Of a stretch of 48,145 nt of DNA, positions 1-47,862 are shown in pieces (positions within the stretch are counted from its first letter, which is position 1; the number at the start of each line of letters is the position of its first letter). The stretch is from a virus (lineage: Duplodnaviria > Heunggongvirae > Uroviricota > Caudoviricetes). The DNA is taken from IMG/VR virus record IMGVR_UViG_2526164669_000027; one strand, written 5' to 3'. The position numbers and the translations under genes were made by a program. The notes beneath the pieces are model-generated. The model saw nothing but the letters and a program-made list of their open reading frames with translations. It made no database searches and was not told where the DNA came from.

Positions 1-348
1 GTGGCTCATGATTTCAGTAATGCTGTAAAAGTAGCCGATGCAGAGGCCTCTCTACAAGAGAAGCAACTGTATAAAGTTCAGATTGCAGTGAAATCATTAA
101 TAGATTTTGTTGTCTTAAGTTTTGAACAGCTTGGGATTGAAAAACTTAACGAGTTAGTAGATCCCTCTCTAGATGAGTTACATCAAATAATTCTTGAGCT
201 GGATGCAAAAGCTAAAGAACTTGATGCCCTAGACTTACAGCAAATACTTCTGACCGCACAGATTATGATCCGCGACATCAAACAGAAAAATCCGGATTTG
301 TGCGCACAAAGCTCAAATATTCTGAAAAGAGCTAATATTTTTAAGTAA
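1..348 (+). CDS. hypothetical protein, 3' part only (5' end lies left of the window); AT-rich accessory gene beyond the tail fibre genes
   Basis: Open frame to the window edge; low GC and helical, Leu/Lys/Asp-rich composition unlike the adjacent tail genes; convergent with tfa. Confidence 0.4.
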   Translation: MAHDFSNAVKVADAEASLQEKQLYKVQIAVKSLIDFVVLSFEQLGIEKLNELVDPSLDELHQIILELDAKAKELDALDLQQILLTAQIMIRDIKQKNPDLCAQSSNILKRANIFK

Positions 349-380
349 CTTTAGATAATGAACGAGGCCCCCGGAGGCGT

Positions 381-509
381 ATGCACATGAACAAACTCCA
401 AACTATCGCTGATATGCTGAGACTAGCTAACCGTCTGAACGAAATCGTTGCAGAGATGGAAATCCGTAAGCAAGCTATGATTACTGAACTGGTCAGTAAA
501 GCTGCATAA
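381..509 (+). CDS. small hypothetical protein (42 aa)
   Basis: ATG at 381 preceded by GGAGG (372-376); stop just before a hairpin terminator; not in the ORF track (<60 aa). Confidence 0.3.
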   Translation: MHMNKLQTIADMLRLANRLNEIVAEMEIRKQAMITELVSKAA

Positions 510-514
510 TACTC

Positions 515-540
515 AAAACCCGGCTTAAAGCCGGGTTTTC
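515..540 (+). terminator. intrinsic terminator-like hairpin
   Basis: AAAACCCGGC-TTAAA-GCCGGGTTTT stem-loop with T-run, between convergent genes. Confidence 0.55.
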
Positions 541-632
541 TATTCCTTTAACTAAACTTCGCGATCTTTTCTGGGCTAATTGACGCACAATTCTGGGCAG
601 GGAGCGCGCAGCCAAAAGCCTAGAATTGACCG

Positions 633-1211
633 CTAATTACTGCTAATCACCATCTCTCTGATTGAGCGTAAATCATCCAGATTATTCAGTTCATCCTTCA
701 TCTCCCGCTGGCGACGATAAATCGCGTCATTGCGATCAACCTGTGCCTGCGCCATTGCTGTCGCCAGTTCTTCCAGTTCCGGCATTGACAGTTTCACCTG
801 TTGATTATCGGCGTCACCCCACGCAAGGGCGGTTCGTGCCGTATCGGATTTCGCCGCCATTACTACCGGATAAAGACGGGCCATTGAGTCGGGGCCAGCG
901 TTCCAGGTGCGACCGTTCCATTCGAACGTGAACGGCAGTGCTTCCTGTTCTGTACGCCACGCCTCGATTTCCCGCTTTTTGGCATCTTTTGCCGCAGCGA
1001 TAAGTTCCGGCGTGACGGTGAACGGGGCGATTTCGCCCCATTTGCCGCTCTGCAACTCTTCCCAGATGCGCTGGCCTGTCGGTGCGGTATCGTCCTGCAT
1101 GGCGGTATACAGGACGAATTCCGTTTCACCTTCAAATAACACCTCGCAGTCAACCGCACCATTTTCAAGATAATGCGCGTTTCTGATGCCTTTTACTGCT
1201 CTGATTTTCAT
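633..1211 (-). CDS. tfa: tail fibre assembly protein (Tfa-like)
   Basis: 192-aa ORF directly downstream of the side tail fibre gene; resembles lambdoid Tfa as recalled. Confidence 0.75.
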   Translation of the reverse strand: MKIRAVKGIRNAHYLENGAVDCEVLFEGETEFVLYTAMQDDTAPTGQRIWEELQSGKWGEIAPFTVTPELIAAAKDAKKREIEAWRTEQEALPFTFEWNGRTWNAGPDSMARLYPVVMAAKSDTARTALAWGDADNQQVKLSMPELEELATAMAQAQVDRNDAIYRRQREMKDELNNLDDLRSIREMVISSN

Positions 1212-1225
1212 GTCTTATCTCCCCG

Positions 1226-3340
1226 TTACTCGATGCGCACAAACAGACACGCATAACCATACTGACCGAGTGTGGTGGTTGCATTTTGCCCTGACAGCGC
1301 CATGTATCGACCGGGAAAACCAGCACATGCGCCTGATGAGCCCGGGGTGCCGACAAGGAATCGTGGATTTCCGGTAAAAATCCCGGTATCACCGGCACTG
1401 CAGAGTATTGCCAGTGGGCTGAGTCGTGAGCCCTGAACAACGTCACCCTGGGCTATTTTTTTATCGTCGTCGTTGAGATGGAGTCCCCGGTACACGGCAA
1501 AAATCGGGACGCCAACCGCCGGATATTTGTAGTATGAGGAGGAGTCAGTGCCTGCTGTTCTGGACAACAGGAACGCCAGCGAATCGCCGTCGTAAATAAT
1601 GGGGCTTACTGTTGCATTCCAGTTGTTTCCACTCCAGCGATAAGTCAGGCGATGAATACTGTGCTCACCTTCGTAATACTGGTTAAAACACAGCAGCGTT
1701 TTGAATTTGCGCGTCGTGTCTGACTCGTCGTTATCAAAGGGTGACCACATCACATCAATGATGCCGTTAAATTTCGTGGTGCCCGCCAGTAGTGTGGAAG
1801 AGTCCGCAATACTGACCGCATAACGCCCCGGGGTGGCCTCTTTCAGCCATTCAGCAAAATCGGCCTGTCCGTTAAATGTCAGGGCTTCGGTGCTGGTAAA
1901 TGCCTGACCGAACCCATGCATACCGGACAGTGCCAGCCTGCCCGGTGTACGGTCGCGGATATCGCTCTGGGGTTCCATCGTCGCAGCCGCTTTCAGTTCA
2001 AGCTCCGTGCGCATGGCCTCAGACGTGTCCAGCGCCAGTAATGCGCGGGCTTTTTCTGACAGTTGCGCCAGTAAAATCCGGCCCTCTGCACTGAAATAAG
2101 GCAGTGTGTTTTCTTCCGGTGTTATCTGGCTGACAGCCGTTAACACGTCATTAAGCGGCTGTTTACCTGCCAGTGCTTTAGTGACGGTTGTCGCAAAGTT
2201 CGGGTCATTACCCAGCGCCGCTGCCAGCTCGTTCAGTGTGTCCAGGGCTTCCGGTGACGAGTCAACCAGTGCGGCAAGCAGTTTGCGGACAAAAGCAGCA
2301 TTCGCTGTTTCCAGACCAGCAGCATCATCCGGTGGTGTTGGTGTGGTTGGCGTGCCGGTGAATGCCGGGCTGTCCAGCGGCGCTTTTGTTTTCATCTCGT
2401 CCATGACGGTTTTGACAGCCTTTGGTGTGGCAGCCAGTTCTTCGCTGTCGTTATCCGTATCACTACAGAGTTGCACCAGGCCTTTTTGCGTCGTGCTGGC
2501 GTTGGTTCCCTTCAGGTCATCAACTATCCGTTGCGCCTCGTCCCTGTGCTGTTTCGCGCTCTGCTCGCTTTTGGCAGCCGCTTCGGCGCTGGCTTTTGCC
2601 TCGCCGGTCAGCGTTGCGGCATCAGCAAGTTTATCGAGCGCTTTCTGGACTATCGCGTCAGCATCCTTGACAGCCTGCTCTGCGCGGGCGGCATCCTGTG
2701 TGGCAGATGATGCCAGGAGCGCCACCTGATTTTTATCTTCGGCAACGGCTTCTGCATTCTGCTGTACGTTATCCGCCAGCGTCTGGCAGTCGCTCTTAAT
2801 TTGTTGCGCATCAGCGACATGTTGCCCGGCCTGTCGTTCGCTTTCTGCAGCGGCTTCGGCATTTTGCTGTGCCTGATTTTTTAGCTCTTCTGCATTATTT
2901 TTACTGTCAAGAGCAGAAGTCGCTGCGTTTGTTGCCGTCTCCGCTGCCGCCTCTGCTCTTTCACGATCATTGGTGACCTGCTCCGACTGCCGGGCAACCG
3001 CATCCACCATTTCCTCAAAGCGCTTCATCACCTCCGGACGTAAATCACCATCCTTTGGTGCATCCAGAAACGCGTTAAGTGTCCCCGGTGCATCAGTCGG
3101 TGCCACATAAATATCCCCGACACGGGTTGGCTGCCAGCCGTTACGGTGAAGCGCAACCTCGTAATACCCCGGCTCAGCCTCAATCACATAAGCACCGTTA
3201 TTGTCCGTCACACAAGTGGCAACAACGTGTGCCACAACGGTCGGACTGGTTCTTCTGGCTCGCAATTCAATCGCACAATTTACGACAGGTTTACCCGCCC
3301 CATCTTTCAGTACACCTGAAATCTTTACTGCCATATTCAC
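1226..3340 (-). CDS. stf: side tail fibre protein (Stf-like), 704 aa
   Basis: Position between lom and tfa; long Ala/Gln/Glu-rich coiled central region and C-terminal fibre-tip domain. Confidence 0.8.
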   Translation of the reverse strand: MNMAVKISGVLKDGAGKPVVNCAIELRARRTSPTVVAHVVATCVTDNNGAYVIEAEPGYYEVALHRNGWQPTRVGDIYVAPTDAPGTLNAFLDAPKDGDLRPEVMKRFEEMVDAVARQSEQVTNDRERAEAAAETATNAATSALDSKNNAEELKNQAQQNAEAAAESERQAGQHVADAQQIKSDCQTLADNVQQNAEAVAEDKNQVALLASSATQDAARAEQAVKDADAIVQKALDKLADAATLTGEAKASAEAAAKSEQSAKQHRDEAQRIVDDLKGTNASTTQKGLVQLCSDTDNDSEELAATPKAVKTVMDEMKTKAPLDSPAFTGTPTTPTPPDDAAGLETANAAFVRKLLAALVDSSPEALDTLNELAAALGNDPNFATTVTKALAGKQPLNDVLTAVSQITPEENTLPYFSAEGRILLAQLSEKARALLALDTSEAMRTELELKAAATMEPQSDIRDRTPGRLALSGMHGFGQAFTSTEALTFNGQADFAEWLKEATPGRYAVSIADSSTLLAGTTKFNGIIDVMWSPFDNDESDTTRKFKTLLCFNQYYEGEHSIHRLTYRWSGNNWNATVSPIIYDGDSLAFLLSRTAGTDSSSYYKYPAVGVPIFAVYRGLHLNDDDKKIAQGDVVQGSRLSPLAILCSAGDTGIFTGNPRFLVGTPGSSGACAGFPGRYMALSGQNATTTLGQYGYACLFVRIE

Positions 3341-3398: not shown

Positions 3399-3998
3399 TC
3401 AGAACTTATAACCGACACCCATGATGAAACCGTCAGTGCGCCAGTCGCCACTGCCGGAGCCTTCATAAGCAATATCAATGGCCACGGATTCGGTCGGGTT
3501 AAACTGCACGCCAGCTCCCCACGCCAGAGACGTGTTGCTGTGGCGACCGTCATCACTTCCGGTCAGCACATCGTGCGTTTTCCCCTTGTTGTCAGTTACG
3601 CGGAGATAATCTCCGGAGAAAGTCGAAACACGGCTGTAAGCCATACCCGCCATCGCATACGCGCTGAACCATTCATTCACGCGCACAGACGGCCCCGCCA
3701 TTACGCTGAACCCGCGGTTACGAACGGAATCTTCATGCCAGCGGGTATCGCTGTAGTGCGTTTTTTGCTCATCTTTGGCATTGGCATAACTGAATGACGT
3801 CACAACACCCAGCATGTCCGTAAACTCATAACGGTATTTCACGTTAATCCCGTTCAGATCATCACTACCGGGAACGTTCGTCGAGGCATGGAGATACCCC
3901 GCGCTCAGCGTGGACTGATGTTCTGCTGCACTCGCTGGCGTGGCAGCGGCGACCTGCCAGACTACTGCGGACAAAATAACAGCACATAATTTACGCAT
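3399..3998 (-). CDS. lom: Lom/Ail-family outer membrane beta-barrel protein
   Basis: 199 aa, signal peptide, C-terminal ...GVGYKF typical of the Ail/Lom family; sits downstream of J as in lambda. Confidence 0.9.
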   Translation of the reverse strand: MRKLCAVILSAVVWQVAAATPASAAEHQSTLSAGYLHASTNVPGSDDLNGINVKYRYEFTDMLGVVTSFSYANAKDEQKTHYSDTRWHEDSVRNRGFSVMAGPSVRVNEWFSAYAMAGMAYSRVSTFSGDYLRVTDNKGKTHDVLTGSDDGRHSNTSLAWGAGVQFNPTESVAIDIAYEGSGSGDWRTDGFIMGVGYKF

Positions 3999-4065: not shown

Positions 4066-7000
4066 TCAGCTAATCGTGATGCCTGCAGTGGCTTTCTTCA
4101 TCACCACAACCAGCAAATCGCTGATACTTGCTGTGGGATACCAGTTATTTACCAGCCATGCTGACACCGAAAACTCCAGTGTCATGTGACCGTGACCGGC
4201 AGGCATATCAATAACACCACTGTAAATCAGCGTATTATCCAGCGCGGTACGGTTATAAATTTCAGCACCGTTTTTCCGTACTATCAGACGGCATGAGGAG
4301 TAAATATCAGTATACTCTTTCTCATGTTTAGCGCCGCTGAATGCCACCGCCGGAATAACAATCTGCCGGTCAAACGGCTGATCGTCATAAACCCTGACGG
4401 TAATGGTTCCTGATGGCCACCGCTCCGGTGCACGGGAGTCCCGGGGGAAAGCTTTGCCCACTGTTTTAACGAGATCGCCTTCAATCTGGTTGGCGGACAA
4501 TTTTCCCAGAACCCGACAGTTCTCGTTAATCGTGACGTTGTTGAGCGTCCCGGAGTTCGCATTCACGTTACCGCTGATATCGGCATTTTTCGCCGTCAGC
4601 CGCCCGTCCGGTGTCAGGGAAAATGCCGGAGGATTACCGCCGCTGGTAATGGTCGGAGCCGTCAGGCGTTTCAGGAACACGTCGTTCATGAATACCTGGT
4701 TGCCCTGCGCCACAAACATCGGAGTGGTGTTGCCATTGGACGGATCAATAAACGCGATACGGTTAGCGGCAACCAGGAACTGGCTCAGTTTGCCTTCCTC
4801 CGTGTCCTCCATGCTGAGGCCAAGTCCCGCGACATAATGCTTACCGTCTTCGGTCTGCTCAATTTTGACGCCCCACATGGCATTCCATTTATCGTTGGCG
4901 TCTTTCCACTCTTTCGAAAACTGATCCAGTCTGCTGGCGTTATCTTCCGTCAGGTCGACTTTTTCCAGCAGCTCCTTGCCGAGATGGGATTCGGTTATCT
5001 GGCCTTTGAAAAAATCCAGGTAACCTTCCGCATCATCGCTCGCCCGACCGACAGCCTCCACAAATGCCGATTTGCCAACAGTGTTCACACTACGGATATA
5101 AAAATAATAATCATGGCCCGGTTTGATATTGATACTGGCGGCTATCCAGTACAGCGCCGTGCCAAGATAGCGGGCTGTGGTTTCAACCTGCCTGATATCC
5201 GCAATCCGCTTTTCCGAGAACCAGAACTCAAACTGTACCGTCGGATCATAAACGGCAAGATGCGGCGTGGCGGTTATCTGAAAATAGCCCGGCGTCAGCT
5301 CAATCCGCGACGGTGCTGCCGGTGCGGCAATCCGGAACGATACCGATGCCGGATCGCCCTGCTGCCCCCAGGCATTTGCCGCCCGGACTGTCAACCTGTA
5401 GTTTCCCAGCGCCAGTTGCGTGAAGCGGTATGTGGTTTCCGTCGTCCGGGCCGTGCTGACCAGCCGCTCACTGCCGTCGTCTGCTGCCACAGTCAGGCGA
5501 AGCATAAAGCTCACACCCTTCACCACCTTCGGCGTGTCCCATCGCGCCAGCACCTGATATTCCCCGCTGTCTGCAGTGACTTCGGCGGTCAGATGCTGCA
5601 CTGCTGGCGGCGTGACACCCTTCACCGTGCCGCTCTGGTCACCGTCAAAGTGCGCCCCGTTATCCACGATGGCCTCTTTCTCCGGCACATGCTGCACGGC
5701 AGTGATGGCATACGTGCCGTCGTCGTTCTCACGGATACTCACGCAGCGGAACAGGCGCTGGCGCAGCGTCGGCAGCTTAAGCCCCCACACGCTGTATTCA
5801 GCAACACCGTCAGGAACACGGCTCACTTTTACCTTCACGCCGTCGGTGACGGACTGAACCTCCACGCTGACCGGATTGCCACTTCCGTCAACCAGGCTTA
5901 TCAGCGTGGTACCGGAGGGTGGCAGCATGATTTCACGGTCAAGCGTCAGCGTCCGGGTCTCGCTGTTCACCGCCAGCACGCGACCACCGGTACTGATACC
6001 GGCATAGTCATCATCGCAGACTTCAATGACGTCACCCGGTACATGGCGAAGCCCTTCTGCACCCACGCTGAAGTCCACCGTCTGCGTTTCCAGTAGTTCC
6101 GTTTTAATCAGCCACAGCCCGGCGCGGTGTGCCTGCCCCCGGCTGGTACAGCCAAAGGCATCCATCTTCGTAACATTACGACCGTAACGGGCAATGGCCT
6201 GCGTATCTTCAACAAGCTCTGTCGCCGTCTCCCAGCCGTTGTTCGGGTCAATCCAGTTCACCTCAACGGCATTATGGCGGTCCTTCAGGGCGCTGAAGCT
6301 GTAGCGGAACGGCGCGCCATCATCCGGCATCACCACATTACTGCGGTTATAGGTCCACGCCTTATCCGACGGTCGGTCCTGCACGAACGTCAGCGTCTGC
6401 CCGTTCCATACCGGCATACAGCGCATCGCCGAGCAGAAATCGCTGAGCACATCCCACGCCTTACGCTGTGTGGTCAGGTACGCATTACAGGTGATGCGCG
6501 GCTCCGTGCCGCCAAAGCCGTCCGGCACTGACTGGTCGCAGTACTGGCCGATGACATACAGCGCCCATTTATCCACATCTGCCGCACCAAGACGTTTCCC
6601 CATGCCGTAGCGTGGATGGGTCAGCATATCCCACAGACACCAGGCCATGTTGTCGCTGTACGCAGGCTTAAACGTTCCGTCCCAGATACCGCTGTATTGC
6701 CGCGTCTGCGGGTTATAGTTCGACGGCACCTGCAGAATGCGCCCGCGAAGATGATAATTACGACTCACCTGCTGGCTGCCGAACTGCTCCGAGTCCACCT
6801 GTACACCGACCAGTGCCGTGTTCGGGTAGCCCTGTTTCACATCGATGATTTCGGTGTATGACGACCAGAGCGTTTTGTTCTGCAGCTGGTCTGTAGTGCT
6901 GTCCGGCGTCATTCTGCGCATCCGGATATTAAACGGGCGCGGCGGCAGGTTACCCACCACCACCGAGGCCAGATACTGCGAGGTGGTTTTGCCCTTAATG

Positions 7001-7461
7001 GTGATGTCTTTTTCCGTCACCCAGCCACCATTACGCTGTATCTGAACCAGCAGACGGACTTCCGACGGATTCCTGTCACCCTTTGAGGTGGTTTCCACCA
7101 GTGCCTGCACACCGAAGGTAAAGCGCAGACGGTCGATGTTTGCAGACGTGATGGTCCGGGTAATCGGCGTGTCGTACTTCACTTCCGTACCCAGCACCGT
7201 CTCGGAGCCGGAGGATTCAAATCCCTCCGGCGGTGTCTGCTCCTGCTCACCTGCCCGGAACACCACCGTGACGCCGGATATATTGGTATTCCCCTCACTG
7301 TCCAGCACCGGCGTACTGTTCAGCAGCACGCTTTTTAATCCATCCACCGGACCTTCAATCGGCCCTTCACTGATCGCATCAATCACGCTCAGTAACTGCG
7401 TGGATTTCAGGTTATCTTTCGCTTCGCGAGGAGTGTGCCCCTTGCTGCCACCTTTACCCAT
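4066..7461 (-). CDS. J: host specificity / central tail fibre protein J (1131 aa)
   Basis: Size and position match lambda J; follows I/K/L/M. Confidence 0.95.
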
Positions 7462-29541: not shown

Positions 29542-30729
29542 ATGTCTCTTCGCTTCAGACAAACTTTTACCATTTTCCCCGGAGTACGCCTTAACATCGG
29601 TAAACATGGGGTAAGCGCAAGTTTTGGTGTCCCCGGAGCCACAGTTAATGTTAACCAAAAAGGAATTAAAGCAACTCTAGGGTTACCAGGATCTGGTTTA
29701 TCGTATACATCCCCTCGTTTACCATACAAAGACAAACCATCCACAACCATTCAGCTAAATCCGTCGTCTGTAGAATCTCATATTGATGCACCCGAGTTAA
29801 TTTCAGACAACACCCCATCAAACGCAAAAATGTACATGCCACAAACAGGCATGAATGAAATCTCCAGTGCCTCAGTAGAGGCCTTGACAAGTACATCTCT
29901 TTTACCTTTACGAGACTTGATCGTTAAAGCACGAGAACAAAGAGCGGAAATAGCATCTGACTTACAAGAGGCTCTTGCAGAAGAATCAAGACAAAAGAGT
30001 GAATTGGCTCGACGTAAATCAAGCCTGTTTCGATGGTTTTATAAACGTCGCATTGCAGAACTTGAAGCAACGCTACCACAAATACAAGCAGAAGTATCTC
30101 GTCTTGTATCCTGGGAAGATAACACTAAAATCGTCATTAATTTCGAAACCAGCGATTCCTCACAGCGGGCTTATGCAGCAATGATTCGTGCTTTCGATAT
30201 TTTAAAATCAAGTATCAAAAAATGGGATATTACCGCAGATAAAGCTATAGATCAGTTTGCAGAAAGGACGTTAGCTACACGAGCAGTTGATCGTCATCCA
30301 GTCGTATTTGATTTCGCTTCAACAGATCTAATTCGTTTTACTGGAAGAGCAATGCGATTTGAAAATGTCAATGGCGACGATATATTGCTTTATCCGGGTA
30401 TTGCTGTAATTCCTCGCCCCGATGGGGCATTTGCTCTGATTGACTTACGGGAATTACAAATTAATGCGCAGCATCAAGGGTTCCATGAAGAGGATGGTGT
30501 TCCGAGTGATGCCAGCATAGCTGGGCATACATGGGCAAAAACAAATAAAGATGGCTCACCAGACCGACGATTTAAAGATAACTATCAAATCCCAATTTGC
30601 ATTTATGGAAAGTTATATTTCCAGTCCCAAACAGGCATTACAGAAGAATACATGGTATCAAATGCTGATGCTGCTCTAGCTTTCGCGGAGGCATTTAAGC
30701 GCTATCAGGATTCACTTAGCATGGAGTAA
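29542..30729 (+). CDS. hypothetical 395-aa protein; N-terminal Gly/Val-rich segment (DUF4236-like as recalled), coiled-coil segment, uncharacterised C-terminal domain
   Basis: Clean ORF with own upstream region, low GC, antisense to the late operon, in the Q-to-lysis cargo slot. Confidence 0.8.
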   Translation: MSLRFRQTFTIFPGVRLNIGKHGVSASFGVPGATVNVNQKGIKATLGLPGSGLSYTSPRLPYKDKPSTTIQLNPSSVESHIDAPELISDNTPSNAKMYMPQTGMNEISSASVEALTSTSLLPLRDLIVKAREQRAEIASDLQEALAEESRQKSELARRKSSLFRWFYKRRIAELEATLPQIQAEVSRLVSWEDNTKIVINFETSDSSQRAYAAMIRAFDILKSSIKKWDITADKAIDQFAERTLATRAVDRHPVVFDFASTDLIRFTGRAMRFENVNGDDILLYPGIAVIPRPDGAFALIDLRELQINAQHQGFHEEDGVPSDASIAGHTWAKTNKDGSPDRRFKDNYQIPICIYGKLYFQSQTGITEEYMVSNADAALAFAEAFKRYQDSLSME

Positions 30730-45796: not shown

Positions 45797-47110
45797 ATGG
45801 ATAAAGTCAAATATCCAACAGGCGTCGAAAACCACGGTGGCACATTACGCATCTGGTTTAATTTTAAAGGTAAACGTGTCAGGGAAAATCTTGGTGTCCC
45901 TGACACTGCCAAGAACAGGAAGATCGCCGGAGAGCTGCGGACATCTGTATGTTTTGCCATTCGTACAGGAAACTTTGATTACGCTGCGCAGTTCCCTGAC
46001 TCTCCTAACCTCAAGGCTTTTGGGGTAAATAAAAAAGAAATTACGGTGAAAGAGCTTGAAGAAAAGTGGCTGGATCTGAAACGCATGGAAATCTCTGCAA
46101 ATGCATTCAATCGCTATGAATCCGTTGCAAGAACGGTGGTTCCGAAAATTGGAGGTAGCAGACTGGTGTCAACGGTGACCAAAGAGGAATTACTGTATAT
46201 CAGGAAAGATTTGCTGACCGGATATCAGAATTCAACGAAAGACAAAGCACCAGCAAGAGGACGGAGCGTCGTTACTGTAAATTATTATATGACGACAATC
46301 GCTGGAATGTTTCAGTTTGCTGCAGATCACGGTTACTTAGAAGCAAATCCCTTCGAGGGAATTAAGCCTCTTAAAAGAGCCAGGGCAGAGCCAGATCCGC
46401 TAACTCGTGACGAATTTATTCGCCTGATAGATGCTTGCCGGCATCAGCAGACAAAAAACCTGTGGTCATTGGCTGTGTACACAGGAATGCGTCATGGTGA
46501 ACTGGTCTCCCTGGCCTGGGAAGATATCGATCTGAAAGCAGGAACAATTACTATCAGGCGCAATTATACGAAACTCGGTGAGTTCACTCTACCTAAAACT
46601 GAAGCAAGTACAAACAGGGTTGTGCATCTTATCCAGCCCGCTATCAGTGTCCTGAAAAATCAGGCTGAAATGACAAGACTGGGTAAGCAGCACCACATCA
46701 AGGTTCAACTACGTGAATATGGACGTACAGTGAACCATGAATGTACTTTCGTATTTAACCCCCAGGTGGTTAGAAAAAGCAAACAGGTCGGTTTTATCTA
46801 CAAGGTAGATTCTATTGGCGACTCATGGGAAACAGCCATTAAGCGTGCGGGCATCAGGCACCGGAAAGCATACCAGTCACGACACACTTATGCGTGCTGG
46901 TCATTATCTGCCGGAGCAAACCCAAGCTTCATTGCCAGCCAGATGGGCCATGCAAGTGCCCAGATGGTGTTCAATGTATACGGAGCATGGATGACTGACA
47001 GTAATGCAGAACAGATCGCAATGCTGAATCAGAAGCTGGCAGATTATGTCCCAATGATGTCCCATGGTCACCAAAGTGACACAAGAGACTTATTAAAATC
47101 AGTGGGTTAG
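45797..47110 (+). CDS. int: tyrosine-type site-specific integrase
   Basis: 437 aa; C-terminal catalytic region with R..HxxR..Y pattern (..GMRHGEL.., ..SRHTYACWS.., ..NVYGAW..); adjacent to the host junction. Confidence 0.9.
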   Translation: MDKVKYPTGVENHGGTLRIWFNFKGKRVRENLGVPDTAKNRKIAGELRTSVCFAIRTGNFDYAAQFPDSPNLKAFGVNKKEITVKELEEKWLDLKRMEISANAFNRYESVARTVVPKIGGSRLVSTVTKEELLYIRKDLLTGYQNSTKDKAPARGRSVVTVNYYMTTIAGMFQFAADHGYLEANPFEGIKPLKRARAEPDPLTRDEFIRLIDACRHQQTKNLWSLAVYTGMRHGELVSLAWEDIDLKAGTITIRRNYTKLGEFTLPKTEASTNRVVHLIQPAISVLKNQAEMTRLGKQHHIKVQLREYGRTVNHECTFVFNPQVVRKSKQVGFIYKVDSIGDSWETAIKRAGIRHRKAYQSRHTYACWSLSAGANPSFIASQMGHASAQMVFNVYGAWMTDSNAEQIAMLNQKLADYVPMMSHGHQSDTRDLLKSVG

Positions 47111-47125: not shown

Positions 47126-47862
47126 ATGTTAACTGCGTGGAGGGCAACACCACGCTTTACGCCCTGCCGAAACCCGAGGTTGTCCTGCGCTGGCGTGAAC
47201 AGACCACAGATGACTTCCGCTTCTGTTTTAAGTTTCCGGCGACCATTTCGCATCAGGCAGCATTACGACATTGCGATGATTTAGTGACTGAATTTTTGAC
47301 CCGCATGTCACCGTTGGCTCCGCGCATTGGGCAATACTGGCTGCAACTGCCTGCCACATTCGGCCCACGGGAGCTGCCTGCGCTTTGGCATTTTCTCGAT
47401 TCTCTCCCTGGCGAATTTAATTATGGTGTGGAAGTCCGCCATCCACAGTTTTTCGCCAAAGGGGAAGAGGAACAAACTCTTAATCGCGGTTTACATCAGC
47501 GCGGCGTTAATCGGGTGATTTTAGACAGCCGCCCGGTTCATGCAGCATGTCCACACAGTGAAGCTATTCGCGACGCTCAACGAAAAAAACCTAAAGTTCC
47601 GGTACATGCTGTACTGACGGCGACAAATCCGCTGATCCGTTTTATCGGTAGTGATGATATGACGCAAAACCGGGAATTATTTCAGGTCTGGTTACAGAAA
47701 TTAGCGCAGTGGCATCAGACCACTACGCCTTATCTTTTTTTACATACGCCAGACATTGCCCAGGCCCCGGAACTGGTACATACCCTGTGGGAAGACTTAC
47801 GTAAAACGCTTCCAGAGATCGGAGCAGTTCCGGCTATTCCACAGCAATCTTCTCTTTTCTGA
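47116..47862 (+). CDS. yecE: host yecE-like protein (DUF72 family), original 5' end displaced by the prophage
   Basis: ..NCVEGNTTLYALPKPEVVLRWREQTTDDFRFCFKFP.. matches E. coli YecE as recalled from about residue 30 on; GC content shifts. Confidence 0.7.
   Translation, partial: NTRHVNCVEGNTTLYALPKPEVVLRWREQTTDDFRFCFKFPATISHQAALRHCDDLVTEFLTRMSPLAPRIGQYWLQLPATFGPRELPALWHFLDSLPGEFNYGVEVRHPQFFAKGEEEQTLNRGLHQRGVNRVILDSRPVHAACPHSEAIRDAQRKKPKVPVHAVLTATNPLIRFIGSDDMTQNRELFQVWLQKLAQWHQTTTPYLFLHTPDIAQAPELVHTLWEDLRKTLPEIGAVPAIPQQSSLF

Follow-up and report, generated by a model that had tools for sequence, protein, structure and literature searches.

A two-gene accessory cassette at the tail-fibre-distal edge of an Escherichia coli yecE prophage, a candidate lysogeny-expressed moron

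The DNA analysed here, referred to as the window, is a stretch of 48,145 nucleotides from a virus of the class Caudoviricetes (IMG/VR record IMGVR_UViG_2526164669_000027). This work concerns two small open reading frames (ORFs) at its left end, ORF115 and ORF40, and the terminator that follows them. ORF115 (1-348, + strand) is a complete coding sequence for a protein of 115 amino acids, with a GTG start codon at window position 1 and a TAA stop codon at 346-348. ORF40 (387-509, +) follows after 38 nt and encodes a peptide of 40 amino acids. Its frame is open from an ATG at position 381 (381-509), which would yield the 42-residue product given in the original prediction. The small ORF is present as described there, but its start is most likely ATG 387, because the Shine-Dalgarno sequence GGAGG (373-377, +) is positioned 9 nt upstream of this codon and because the 40-residue form occurs in lineages that do not have the upstream ATG. 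The pair is closed by an intrinsic terminator (515-549, +) consisting of an 11-bp stem, AAAACCCGGCT/AGCCGGGTTTT, at 515-539 and a T-rich tail. The calculated folding energy of the hairpin was -16.9 kcal/mol (z = -4.1), a value equalled by none of 200 shuffled sequences.

The next gene is transcribed towards the pair. It is a DUF4376 tail-fibre-associated gene (633-1211, - strand; Pfam DUF4376, 4.9e-17; PHROG 1141 'tail fiber protein', 5.7e-88) with which the late operon ends, and it lies outside the cassette. The arrangement originally noticed, two + strand ORFs (1-348 and 381-509) facing this gene (termed tfa at that time) and ending in a strong hairpin, was thus confirmed. The same is true for the low G+C content, which is 0.365-0.41 over window positions 1-500 versus 0.50-0.60 in the tail module; taken feature by feature, ORF115 has 0.371, ORF40 0.415 and the tail and structural module (633-23500) 0.541.

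ORF115 had been described as the partial end of a gene that extends to the left of the window and cannot be identified here. This proved to be wrong. Among 5.8 billion proteins searched, ORF115 had 39 homologues, almost all of them 114-116 amino acids long and matching with 100% query coverage, and the alignments begin at residue 1. The sequence to the left could be read in L001, a 1,650-bp contig from another sample, which matches the window at 96.7% identity over 822 nt and in which ORF115 differs by one residue and the small ORF is identical. In L001 the sequence AAGGAG is found 7 nt before the GTG codon of ORF115, and an in-frame TGA stop codon is located 24 nt upstream. The length of the homologues, their aligned N-termini and the Shine-Dalgarno sequence and upstream stop codon of L001 together indicate that the window begins at the start codon of ORF115. 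ORF115 is thus a whole gene with no part left of the window and is not cut off at the window edge; the earlier description was likely a mis-call. The gene is identifiable from the window alone, and the leftward extension through L001 reveals its start. The possibility that it is a remnant of a structural or host gene was looked at, and ORF115 did not turn out to be one.

Both ORFs are real genes maintained by purifying selection. For ORF115, ratios of nonsynonymous to synonymous substitution rates (dN/dS) of 0.05-0.10 were obtained in comparisons with relatives that are saturated, or nearly so, at synonymous sites. The last 36 codons of ORF40 were free of stop codons and indels in 8 lineages, with uncorrected ratios of nonsynonymous to synonymous differences (pN/pS) of 0.2-0.76, and its reading frame is kept in 13 lineages. 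A small ORF follows ORF115 at every locus examined, including the distant ones, and distant members of the family keep the two-gene layout with products of 110+37 and 122+37 amino acids. Measured in 12 lineages, the intergenic gap varied between 12 and 40 nt. A Shine-Dalgarno-like GGAGG or GAGGAG precedes the start codon of the peptide by 5-9 nt in most of 12 lineages compared; it is weaker in the two most distant ones (L025 and L026). The start codon of ORF115 is GTG in nearly all lineages and ATG in Pantoea. A hairpin, usually with a CCCGGC/GCCGGG stem, follows the stop codon of the peptide in most lineages. The divergence of ORF115 and that of ORF40 were correlated (Spearman 0.80 over 78 lineage pairs), and lineages from at least 10 genera have kept both frames, both ribosome binding sites and the terminator.

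The product of ORF115 is acidic (isoelectric point, pI, 4.9), soluble and not hydrophobic, with a grand average of hydropathy (GRAVY) of about 0. AlphaFold2 predicted a four-helix bundle (helices 18-50, 57-73, 77-94 and 98-109) with a predicted local distance difference test score (pLDDT) of 85, preceded by an N-terminal tail of about 14 residues that is predicted to be disordered. The signature of the protein, G-I-E-K-L-x-E-L-V-D-P-S-L-D-E-L, maps to the loop between helix 1 and helix 2. Distant members retain EL(V/T)DPSLD(E/D)L at this first inter-helix loop and have lost Cys101, the sole cysteine of ORF115, which is in helix 4. Very few proteins belong to the family: of 1.84 billion cluster representatives searched with its profile, 18 matched at E <= 0.001, the longest of 135 amino acids. 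Profile searches with ORF115 and with the peptide against PDB sequences gave no match, and a Foldseek comparison with the PDB and with viral models gave nothing below E = 0.4.

The 40-residue peptide (pI 8.3, GRAVY 0.03) was predicted by AlphaFold2 to form a single charged, amphipathic helix spanning residues 3-39 (pLDDT 94), and has the conserved core M-L-x-L-A-x-R-L-N-E-I-V-x-E-M. Its homologues comprise 42 cluster representatives, 33 of which end in Ala-Ala. In the lineages studied at the DNA level this C-terminal Ala-Ala is kept in 12 of 13, encoded by differing codons and followed by differing stop codons. A terminal Ala-Ala is the critical element of the ssrA-like degrons recognised by ClpXP (PMC10862746). 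Two divergent ORF40 homologues of 45 amino acids, P0089 and P0090, end in ...(V/E)AANDE and not in ...KAA. AANDE is identical to the start of the E. coli ssrA tag, AANDENYALAA, over its first five residues. These ends could be a coincidence, or could hint at a tail that engages the machinery recognising the transfer-messenger RNA (tmRNA) tag (SspB/ClpX).

The check for upstream regulatory motifs that had been proposed with the original prediction was only partly positive: a ribosome binding site, AAGGAG, was found together with about 50 nt of sequence which precedes the start of ORF115, includes this motif and is conserved in all contexts, and a promoter above chance was not found. Within this region a segment of 27 nt before the start codon (GATCCTATATAAGGAGTATAGTTAGTG, with a Dam GATC site inside) is conserved beyond the synonymous sites of the gene itself, as determined for L001 771-800, just left of window position 1, and the equivalent segments of L002, L011 and L024. 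This suggests a translational or transcriptional control element. A conserved TTGAT(T/C)-16-TATAGT was considered as a promoter and rejected: it overlaps the ribosome binding site, and transcription from it would begin inside the ORF. The 216-nt leader that L001 has in common with the Enterobacter copies (see below) could house a promoter; copies linked to a cI-type repressor gene have 46 nt upstream of ORF115 in common with L001. No regulatory hairpin was detected between ORF115 and ORF40 (-5.2 kcal/mol, z = +1.5). The sole, sub-threshold Rfam match, to 'P9 sRNA' (small RNA), was the terminator hairpin itself. Since A4 and T4 runs surround the GC core of the terminator, the convergent DUF4376 transcript could also end there.

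Comparison with prophages that occupy the same chromosomal site and do not carry the pair defined the ends of the unit. Among 5,426 complete E. coli genomes, 43 contain a prophage in yecE sharing the attachment (att) arm of L001 (L001 1-202, 1-296 or 1-326). In the three that were inspected (L030, L031 and L032), yecD, the interrupted yecE (yecE') and the arm are directly followed by the DUF4376 gene, the tail-fibre gene, Lom and J. In blastn comparisons of L001 with L028, L030, L031 and L032, homology to the empty-site prophages ended at L001 position 326 and resumed within the DUF4376 gene (1468). When compared with the DUF4376 module of a prophage at another site, homology resumed at L001 1353, corresponding to window position ~555. 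The break between 326 and 1353 indicates an insert of approximately 1,026 bp relative to the yecE prophages without the pair. It consists of a 471-bp low-G+C leader (G+C content 0.372 over L001 31-797), ORF115, ORF40 and the terminator. The right-hand boundary falls at window positions 550-555: from about 556 on the sequence is common to the DUF4376 tail modules of other prophages, and window positions 555-640 match other E. coli DUF4376 loci. The DNA of the pair (1-545) gave no megablast match in the complete E. coli genomes or in 50,697 phage records; its sole relative in the phage records, detectable at the protein level, is in Klebsiella phage vB_Kpn_RAH1.

The segment therefore displays the marks of a moron, i.e. 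presence or absence with sharp boundaries, a distinct G+C content and a terminator of its own. As far as can be read from the sequence, window positions 1-555 represent the 3' two-thirds of a self-contained accessory cassette of ~1 kb in a lambdoid yecE prophage, the leader and a strong ribosome binding site being located left of the window. This agrees with the proposal that accessory cargo lies beyond the tail-fibre genes, which is also supported by four other lineages with copies at a prophage edge.

The location of the prophage was deduced from both of its ends. The integrase gene (45797-47110, +; Pfam Arm-DNA-bind_2, 4.6e-24; Phage_integrase, 2.4e-18) marks the end opposite to the pair. 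After it come a DUF72 gene truncated at its 5' end and a gene for a small membrane protein, both with 100% identity to their E. coli counterparts, yecE and yecN. The att core TTAACTGCGTGGAGG (47129-47143, +) lies at the integrase end, inside yecE. The identical 15-mer, the longest string common to L001 and the window, is found at L001 16-30, ~770 bp left of ORF115, where it closes a stretch that, when translated, corresponds to the 5' part of yecE. Five TG(T/C)CCCA direct repeats are located beside the att core of L001 (143-201), and a motif search found two TGTCCCA motifs, candidate arm-type sites of the integrase, at window positions 47047-47064 (+). The shared 15-mer, the arm-type repeats and the yecE/yecN flank indicate that the prophage is integrated in yecE, and by proxy from L001 its left end can be placed ~770 bp left of the window. 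A circularly permuted genome, in which the cI gene near the right end would adjoin ORF115, was ruled out, the right end being formed by the integrase gene, the truncated yecE and yecN, that is by host DNA.

The pair was found in two recurrent positions. A scan of species-representative genomes gave one locus (E. albertii); otherwise the contexts were sampled by exact-protein look-ups. In six lineages the gene directly before the pair encodes a cI-type repressor (helix-turn-helix, HTH, plus Peptidase_S24), and the pair is on the same strand and usually upstream of an N-like gene. These lineages are prophages carrying P0006 (Citrobacter freundii and other Enterobacteriaceae; L002-L009), Klebsiella phage vB_Kpn_RAH1, where the upstream gene is annotated 'putative transcriptional regulator' (L010), Yersinia ruckeri (L016-L018), Siccibacter (L024), Pectobacterium (L033) and E. 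albertii (L015). The interval between cI and N is a mosaic accessory hotspot (rexAB, bstA), presumably expressed from the repressor promoter (PMC8585504; PMC7067206). The homology of the cI-linked copies to L001 extends only from 46 nt upstream of ORF115 to just beyond the terminator. In several of the cI-linked lineages an ORF of 67-74 amino acids on the - strand converges on the terminator of the pair (L002 10654-10857; L003 10644-10850; L005 10644-10868; L024 5557-5766; in RAH1, L010 5507-5710). This ORF does not accompany the pair to the prophage-edge sites.

In five other lineages the pair occupies the outer edge of a prophage. There it has host DNA on one side and, on the other, the genes for tail fibres or tail-fibre assembly, with which it is convergent. 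The prophages differ in type: the tail is lambda-like in the window (E. coli) and in Salmonella Give, P2-like in Enterobacter hormaechei, accompanied by baseplate J and tail genes in Pantoea vagans, and Mu-like at the baseplate in Lonsdalea. Loci antisense to the lytic genes are typical of accessory genes (PMC7067206). One distant member is situated within a lambda-like tail module, upstream of a gpL-like gene. In the window the prophage's own cI-type repressor (40895-41626, +; HTH_3 and Peptidase_S24 in Pfam) is not followed by any ORF related to the pair. The homology of the Enterobacter edge copies to L001 starts 216 nt upstream of ORF115. In Enterobacter (L011/L012, 6622-9532) the pair is found beside genes for an SRAP-domain protein, a HicA/HicB toxin-antitoxin pair and a family-25 glycosyltransferase, indicating that the tail-fibre-distal slot gathers several independent accessory modules. 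The pair-carrying prophages of Enterobacter (L011/L012) and Lonsdalea (L034/L035), two different myovirus-type prophages, both adjoin yejM (yejK-yejL-yejM), which suggests a common integration site downstream of this gene.

The two positions do not correspond to two branches of the family. The window copy, located at a prophage edge, is 86% identical to the Enterobacter edge copy, 84% identical to the cI-linked L002 and 82% identical to the cI-linked Pectobacterium copy, and in the identity matrix the Salmonella edge copy is nearest to the cI-linked copy of Siccibacter. Since the two contexts are interleaved in the matrix, the unit must have switched site more than once. The cassette has thus moved repeatedly between the site downstream of cI and the tail-fibre-distal edge of prophages.

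On the basis of these data the pair is best explained as a moron that is expressed in lysogeny and whose products, a protein and a peptide, possibly make up a module of the defence or toxin-antitoxin type in which the peptide is labile to proteases; for this explanation as a whole we see about an even chance of being correct. Its parts are not equally firm. The identity of the locus as a complete, selected and mobile two-gene cassette is well supported by the sequence comparisons, and the mechanism is inferred. The pair would be transcribed in the lysogen, the cI-linked copies by read-through from the repressor promoter and the window copy from a promoter in the leader or by transcription entering across the att site. 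The predicted structures suggest that the two products would function jointly, as a soluble complex of protein and peptide that includes neither an enzyme nor a membrane component, and their opposite charge (pI 4.9 versus 8.3) can be cited in favour of pairing.

More specifically, the likeliest mechanism is a toxin-antitoxin or abortive-infection logic, with the Ala-Ala-tailed peptide as a labile inhibitor of the bundle protein. We put this forward tentatively and, taken on its own, consider it possible although somewhat unlikely. In such a scheme the 40-residue helix with its ssrA-like C-terminal Ala-Ala would be a short-lived partner that restrains the stable four-helix-bundle protein. When the resupply of ORF40 stops, for example because a superinfecting phage shuts off host expression, the freed bundle protein would bind its target and block the growth of the phage or of the cell. 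The resident prophage would benefit as it does from RexAB or BstA encoded at the same genomic position.

A number of observations weigh against this interpretation. ORF115 and ORF40 had no significant match in Pfam, PHROG or NCBIfam and none among 5,027 PADLOC defence models. The fold predicted for ORF115 is a generic helical bundle, and no recognisable toxin motif was detected in the protein. Neither product matched a DNA-binding domain in Pfam, so that the pair does not include a typical type II antitoxin. As to the proposed lability of the peptide, nine of the 42 ORF40 homologues have another C-terminal end, a terminal Ala-Ala is necessary and not sufficient for ClpXP, and the ...V-S-K-A-A end of ORF40 does not have the upstream residues preferred by ClpXP (Leu at -3, aromatic or Leu at -5) (PMC10862746). 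No sigma-70 promoter signal exceeded the shuffled expectation in any context. Finally, the sequence left of the window was read in a proxy contig, L001, which comes from another sample.

Several known systems resemble the pair in part. The cI-linked copies are arranged like lambda rexA-rexB: two genes on the repressor strand, directly downstream of cI and upstream of the N region, with their own terminator. RexA has ~279 amino acids and RexB, a multi-pass membrane protein, ~144. The products of the pair, with 115 and 40 amino acids, are far smaller, show no sequence relationship to RexAB (no Pfam or PADLOC match) and are not hydrophobic; ORF40 is not membrane-spanning, and in the window the pair is not next to cI. 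The cI-linked copies also occupy the same genomic slot as bstA of the Salmonella prophage BTP1, which is downstream of cI, has its own Rho-independent terminator and is presumed to be expressed from the repressor promoter (PMC8585504). However, BstA is encoded by a single gene with an internal anti-BstA DNA element (PMC8585504), whereas the pair is a two-protein unit and had no PADLOC match. Like type II toxin-antitoxin systems, it consists of two small, adjacent, co-oriented genes inherited as a unit; unlike them, it has no HTH, ribbon-helix-helix (RHH) or AbrB domain, and ORF40 is predicted to be a single helix. The predicted antiparallel four-helix bundle of ORF115 is reminiscent of TomB/YmoB. 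In contrast to the oxygen-dependent toxin-antitoxin pairs TomB/YmoB-Hha/YmoA, there is no profile similarity, Cys18 is missing, and the partner has 40 residues instead of ~70 and does not belong to the Hha family; furthermore, TomB-Hha is a chromosomal or plasmid module, whereas ORF115/ORF40 is phage cargo. As a genetic element the pair also resembles generic lambdoid morons such as lambda lom and bor, which are likewise discrete segments of different base composition between conserved phage genes, with their own terminator and of variable presence among syntenic phages. Unlike lom and bor, the pair would encode cytoplasmic products and not outer-membrane proteins or lipoproteins, and the same cassette is found at two moron sites.

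The alternatives to a selected intracellular protein-peptide cassette differ in how much of the above they can accommodate. If the 115-codon ORF were the 3' fragment of a larger cargo gene, for instance one for a secreted effector, its position would be as expected, the tail-fibre-distal site being known for cargo, and its cargo status has been confirmed. This explanation is nevertheless refuted as regards gene length, and extremely improbable as a whole: the homologues are also ~115 amino acids long and align from Met1, L001 provides a Shine-Dalgarno sequence and an in-frame stop codon, and only the 18 cluster representatives, none longer than 135 residues, were found among 1.84 billion sequences. 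Searches of the whole protein for effector families (Pfam and NCBIfam) and for defence models (PADLOC) were negative, and the protein has no secretion-related feature. Moreover, half of the lineages have the pair in the repressor operon, and this position, seen in six lineages, fits a lysogeny-expressed intracellular function better than a host-targeted effector. Equally hard to credit is the view that the ORFs are decaying or non-functional filler at a prophage end. It could appeal to the failure of Pfam, PHROG, PADLOC and NCBIfam to assign a function or family, but it is contradicted by the dN/dS values of 0.05-0.10, the conservation of frames, ribosome binding sites and terminator across lineages, and the confident structure predictions. 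A role in the lysis-lysogeny switch of the resident prophage, for example by binding RecA, cI or an antirepressor, has a precedent in Hex of phage 434, which is co-transcribed with the repressor (from PRM) and blocks RecA-mediated repressor cleavage (PMC3564112), and would be in line with the six lineages in which the pair directly follows cI on the same strand. Yet in five lineages the pair is far from any repressor, at the edges of prophages with lambda-, P2- or Mu-like tails, and in the window cI is 40 kb away. The cI proteins adjacent to the pair are, in addition, of different immunity types (judged by Pfam combinations and by Cro versus HTH_3 partners), which makes a repressor-specific partner unlikely. 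We regard the switch role as improbable.

A counter-defence or host-takeover function was also considered, in which a small acidic binder would inhibit a host defence or another host protein for the benefit of the phage. Small, acidic, all-helical proteins with no enzymatic motifs are typical of phage inhibitors, and the narrow, patchy family would suit such a function. The placement of the genes would not. The cI-linked pair, upstream of the N gene region and with its own terminator, is placed for lysogenic and not for early lytic transcription, and the edge copies are antisense to the late operon; neither location suits an early anti-defence gene, and we give this alternative little weight. 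The same applies to the possibility that the pair modulates silencing by H-NS, Hha and TomB, ORF115 being TomB/YmoB-like and ORF40 a mimic of the N-terminal oligomerisation helix of H-NS. In that case the prophage-expressed pair would tune how H-NS silences AT-rich genes of the prophage or of the host. The two systems share their layout, in which a small helical protein follows an acidic bundle of ~120 amino acids, and the cassette is AT-rich. Eight of 30 peptide homologues matched Pfam Histone_HNS_N below threshold (E 0.0045-0.03, 14-17 bits, cut-off 24.5), and these matches always align the whole peptide to model positions 19-55. On the other hand, the peptide of the window itself had no H-NS match, the peptide profile scored 0.3% against E. 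coli H-NS in hhalign, and no H-NS chain appeared in the PDB profile search. For the TomB part, hhalign gave a probability of 0.1% between the ORF115 profile and TomB, none of 22 members matched Pfam YbaJ/TomB at E <= 10, the PDB profile search did not return 2mn2, and the conserved buried Cys18 in helix 1 of TomB (PMC5155140) has no counterpart in ORF115. An Hha-like identity of the peptide was rejected (0.2% in hhalign, and no Hha match in Pfam scans of 30 peptides). Mimicry of the H-NS N-terminus by the peptide is kept as a weak lead.

The remainder of the prophage contains further cargo. Beyond the DUF4376 gene are a tail-fibre gene with a prophage tail-fibre N-terminal domain (1226-3340, -), a full-length gene for an Ail/Lom outer-membrane protein (3399-3998, -; Pfam PF06316, E 1.6e-121) and a J-like tail-tip gene (4066-7461). 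An Ail/Lom gene in this place, between the J-like and tail-fibre genes, is the classic lambda lom moron. It is 3 kb from the ORF115/ORF40 pair, so that cargo has entered the tail-distal region of the prophage in at least two separate insertions. In the middle part an N6/N4 DNA methylase gene was noted (27807-28853, -), as well as a gene for a 395-residue DUF4236 protein on the strand opposite to its neighbours (29542-30729, +), a possible accessory locus. The cI gene is followed by accessory-looking ORFs with no N-like gene among them (41730-44660, +). They encode a 138-residue HTH_3 protein, proteins of 123 and 212 residues with no family, and a 62-residue hydrophobic product whose ORF overlaps the start of that for a 275-residue SPFH/Band 7 protein with a lipoprotein-like N-terminus. 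None of them had a PADLOC match. This interval between cI and int may be a second cargo zone. Genes for DUF5406, DUF4222 and a DUF1233 putative excisionase lie directly upstream of the integrase gene (44626-45741, +), and with the latter they fit an intact integration/excision module.

Prophage morons at known cargo sites are a well-known kind of element, and the existence of such a cassette will not surprise a specialist; for the ORF115/ORF40 family itself, annotation or characterisation was not found. The cassette is of interest because it is small, has clean boundaries and offers a testable candidate for a new function expressed in lysogeny. For annotation, the boundary of the prophage in yecE is now fixed. 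Functional testing would be inexpensive: the genes total ~0.5 kb, the boundaries are clear, natural empty-site prophages can serve as controls, and the protease-labile peptide provides a specific hypothesis. Lysogeny-expressed accessory genes of prophages are a main source of phage-resistance, stress and virulence traits. Exclusion functions, RexAB and BstA among them, are already known from the slot downstream of cI, which this compact and strongly conserved family occupies in several genera of the Enterobacterales. It is conceivable, though we consider it doubtful, that the pair constitutes a minimal defence or addiction system of prophages that had escaped notice, in which the Ala-Ala tail would act as a ClpXP-timed fuse releasing the bundle effector whenever an invading phage interrupts host gene expression. 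If so, it would rank with the smallest two-protein systems of its type, and prophages would shuttle it between the repressor operon and the tail-fibre-distal cargo site.

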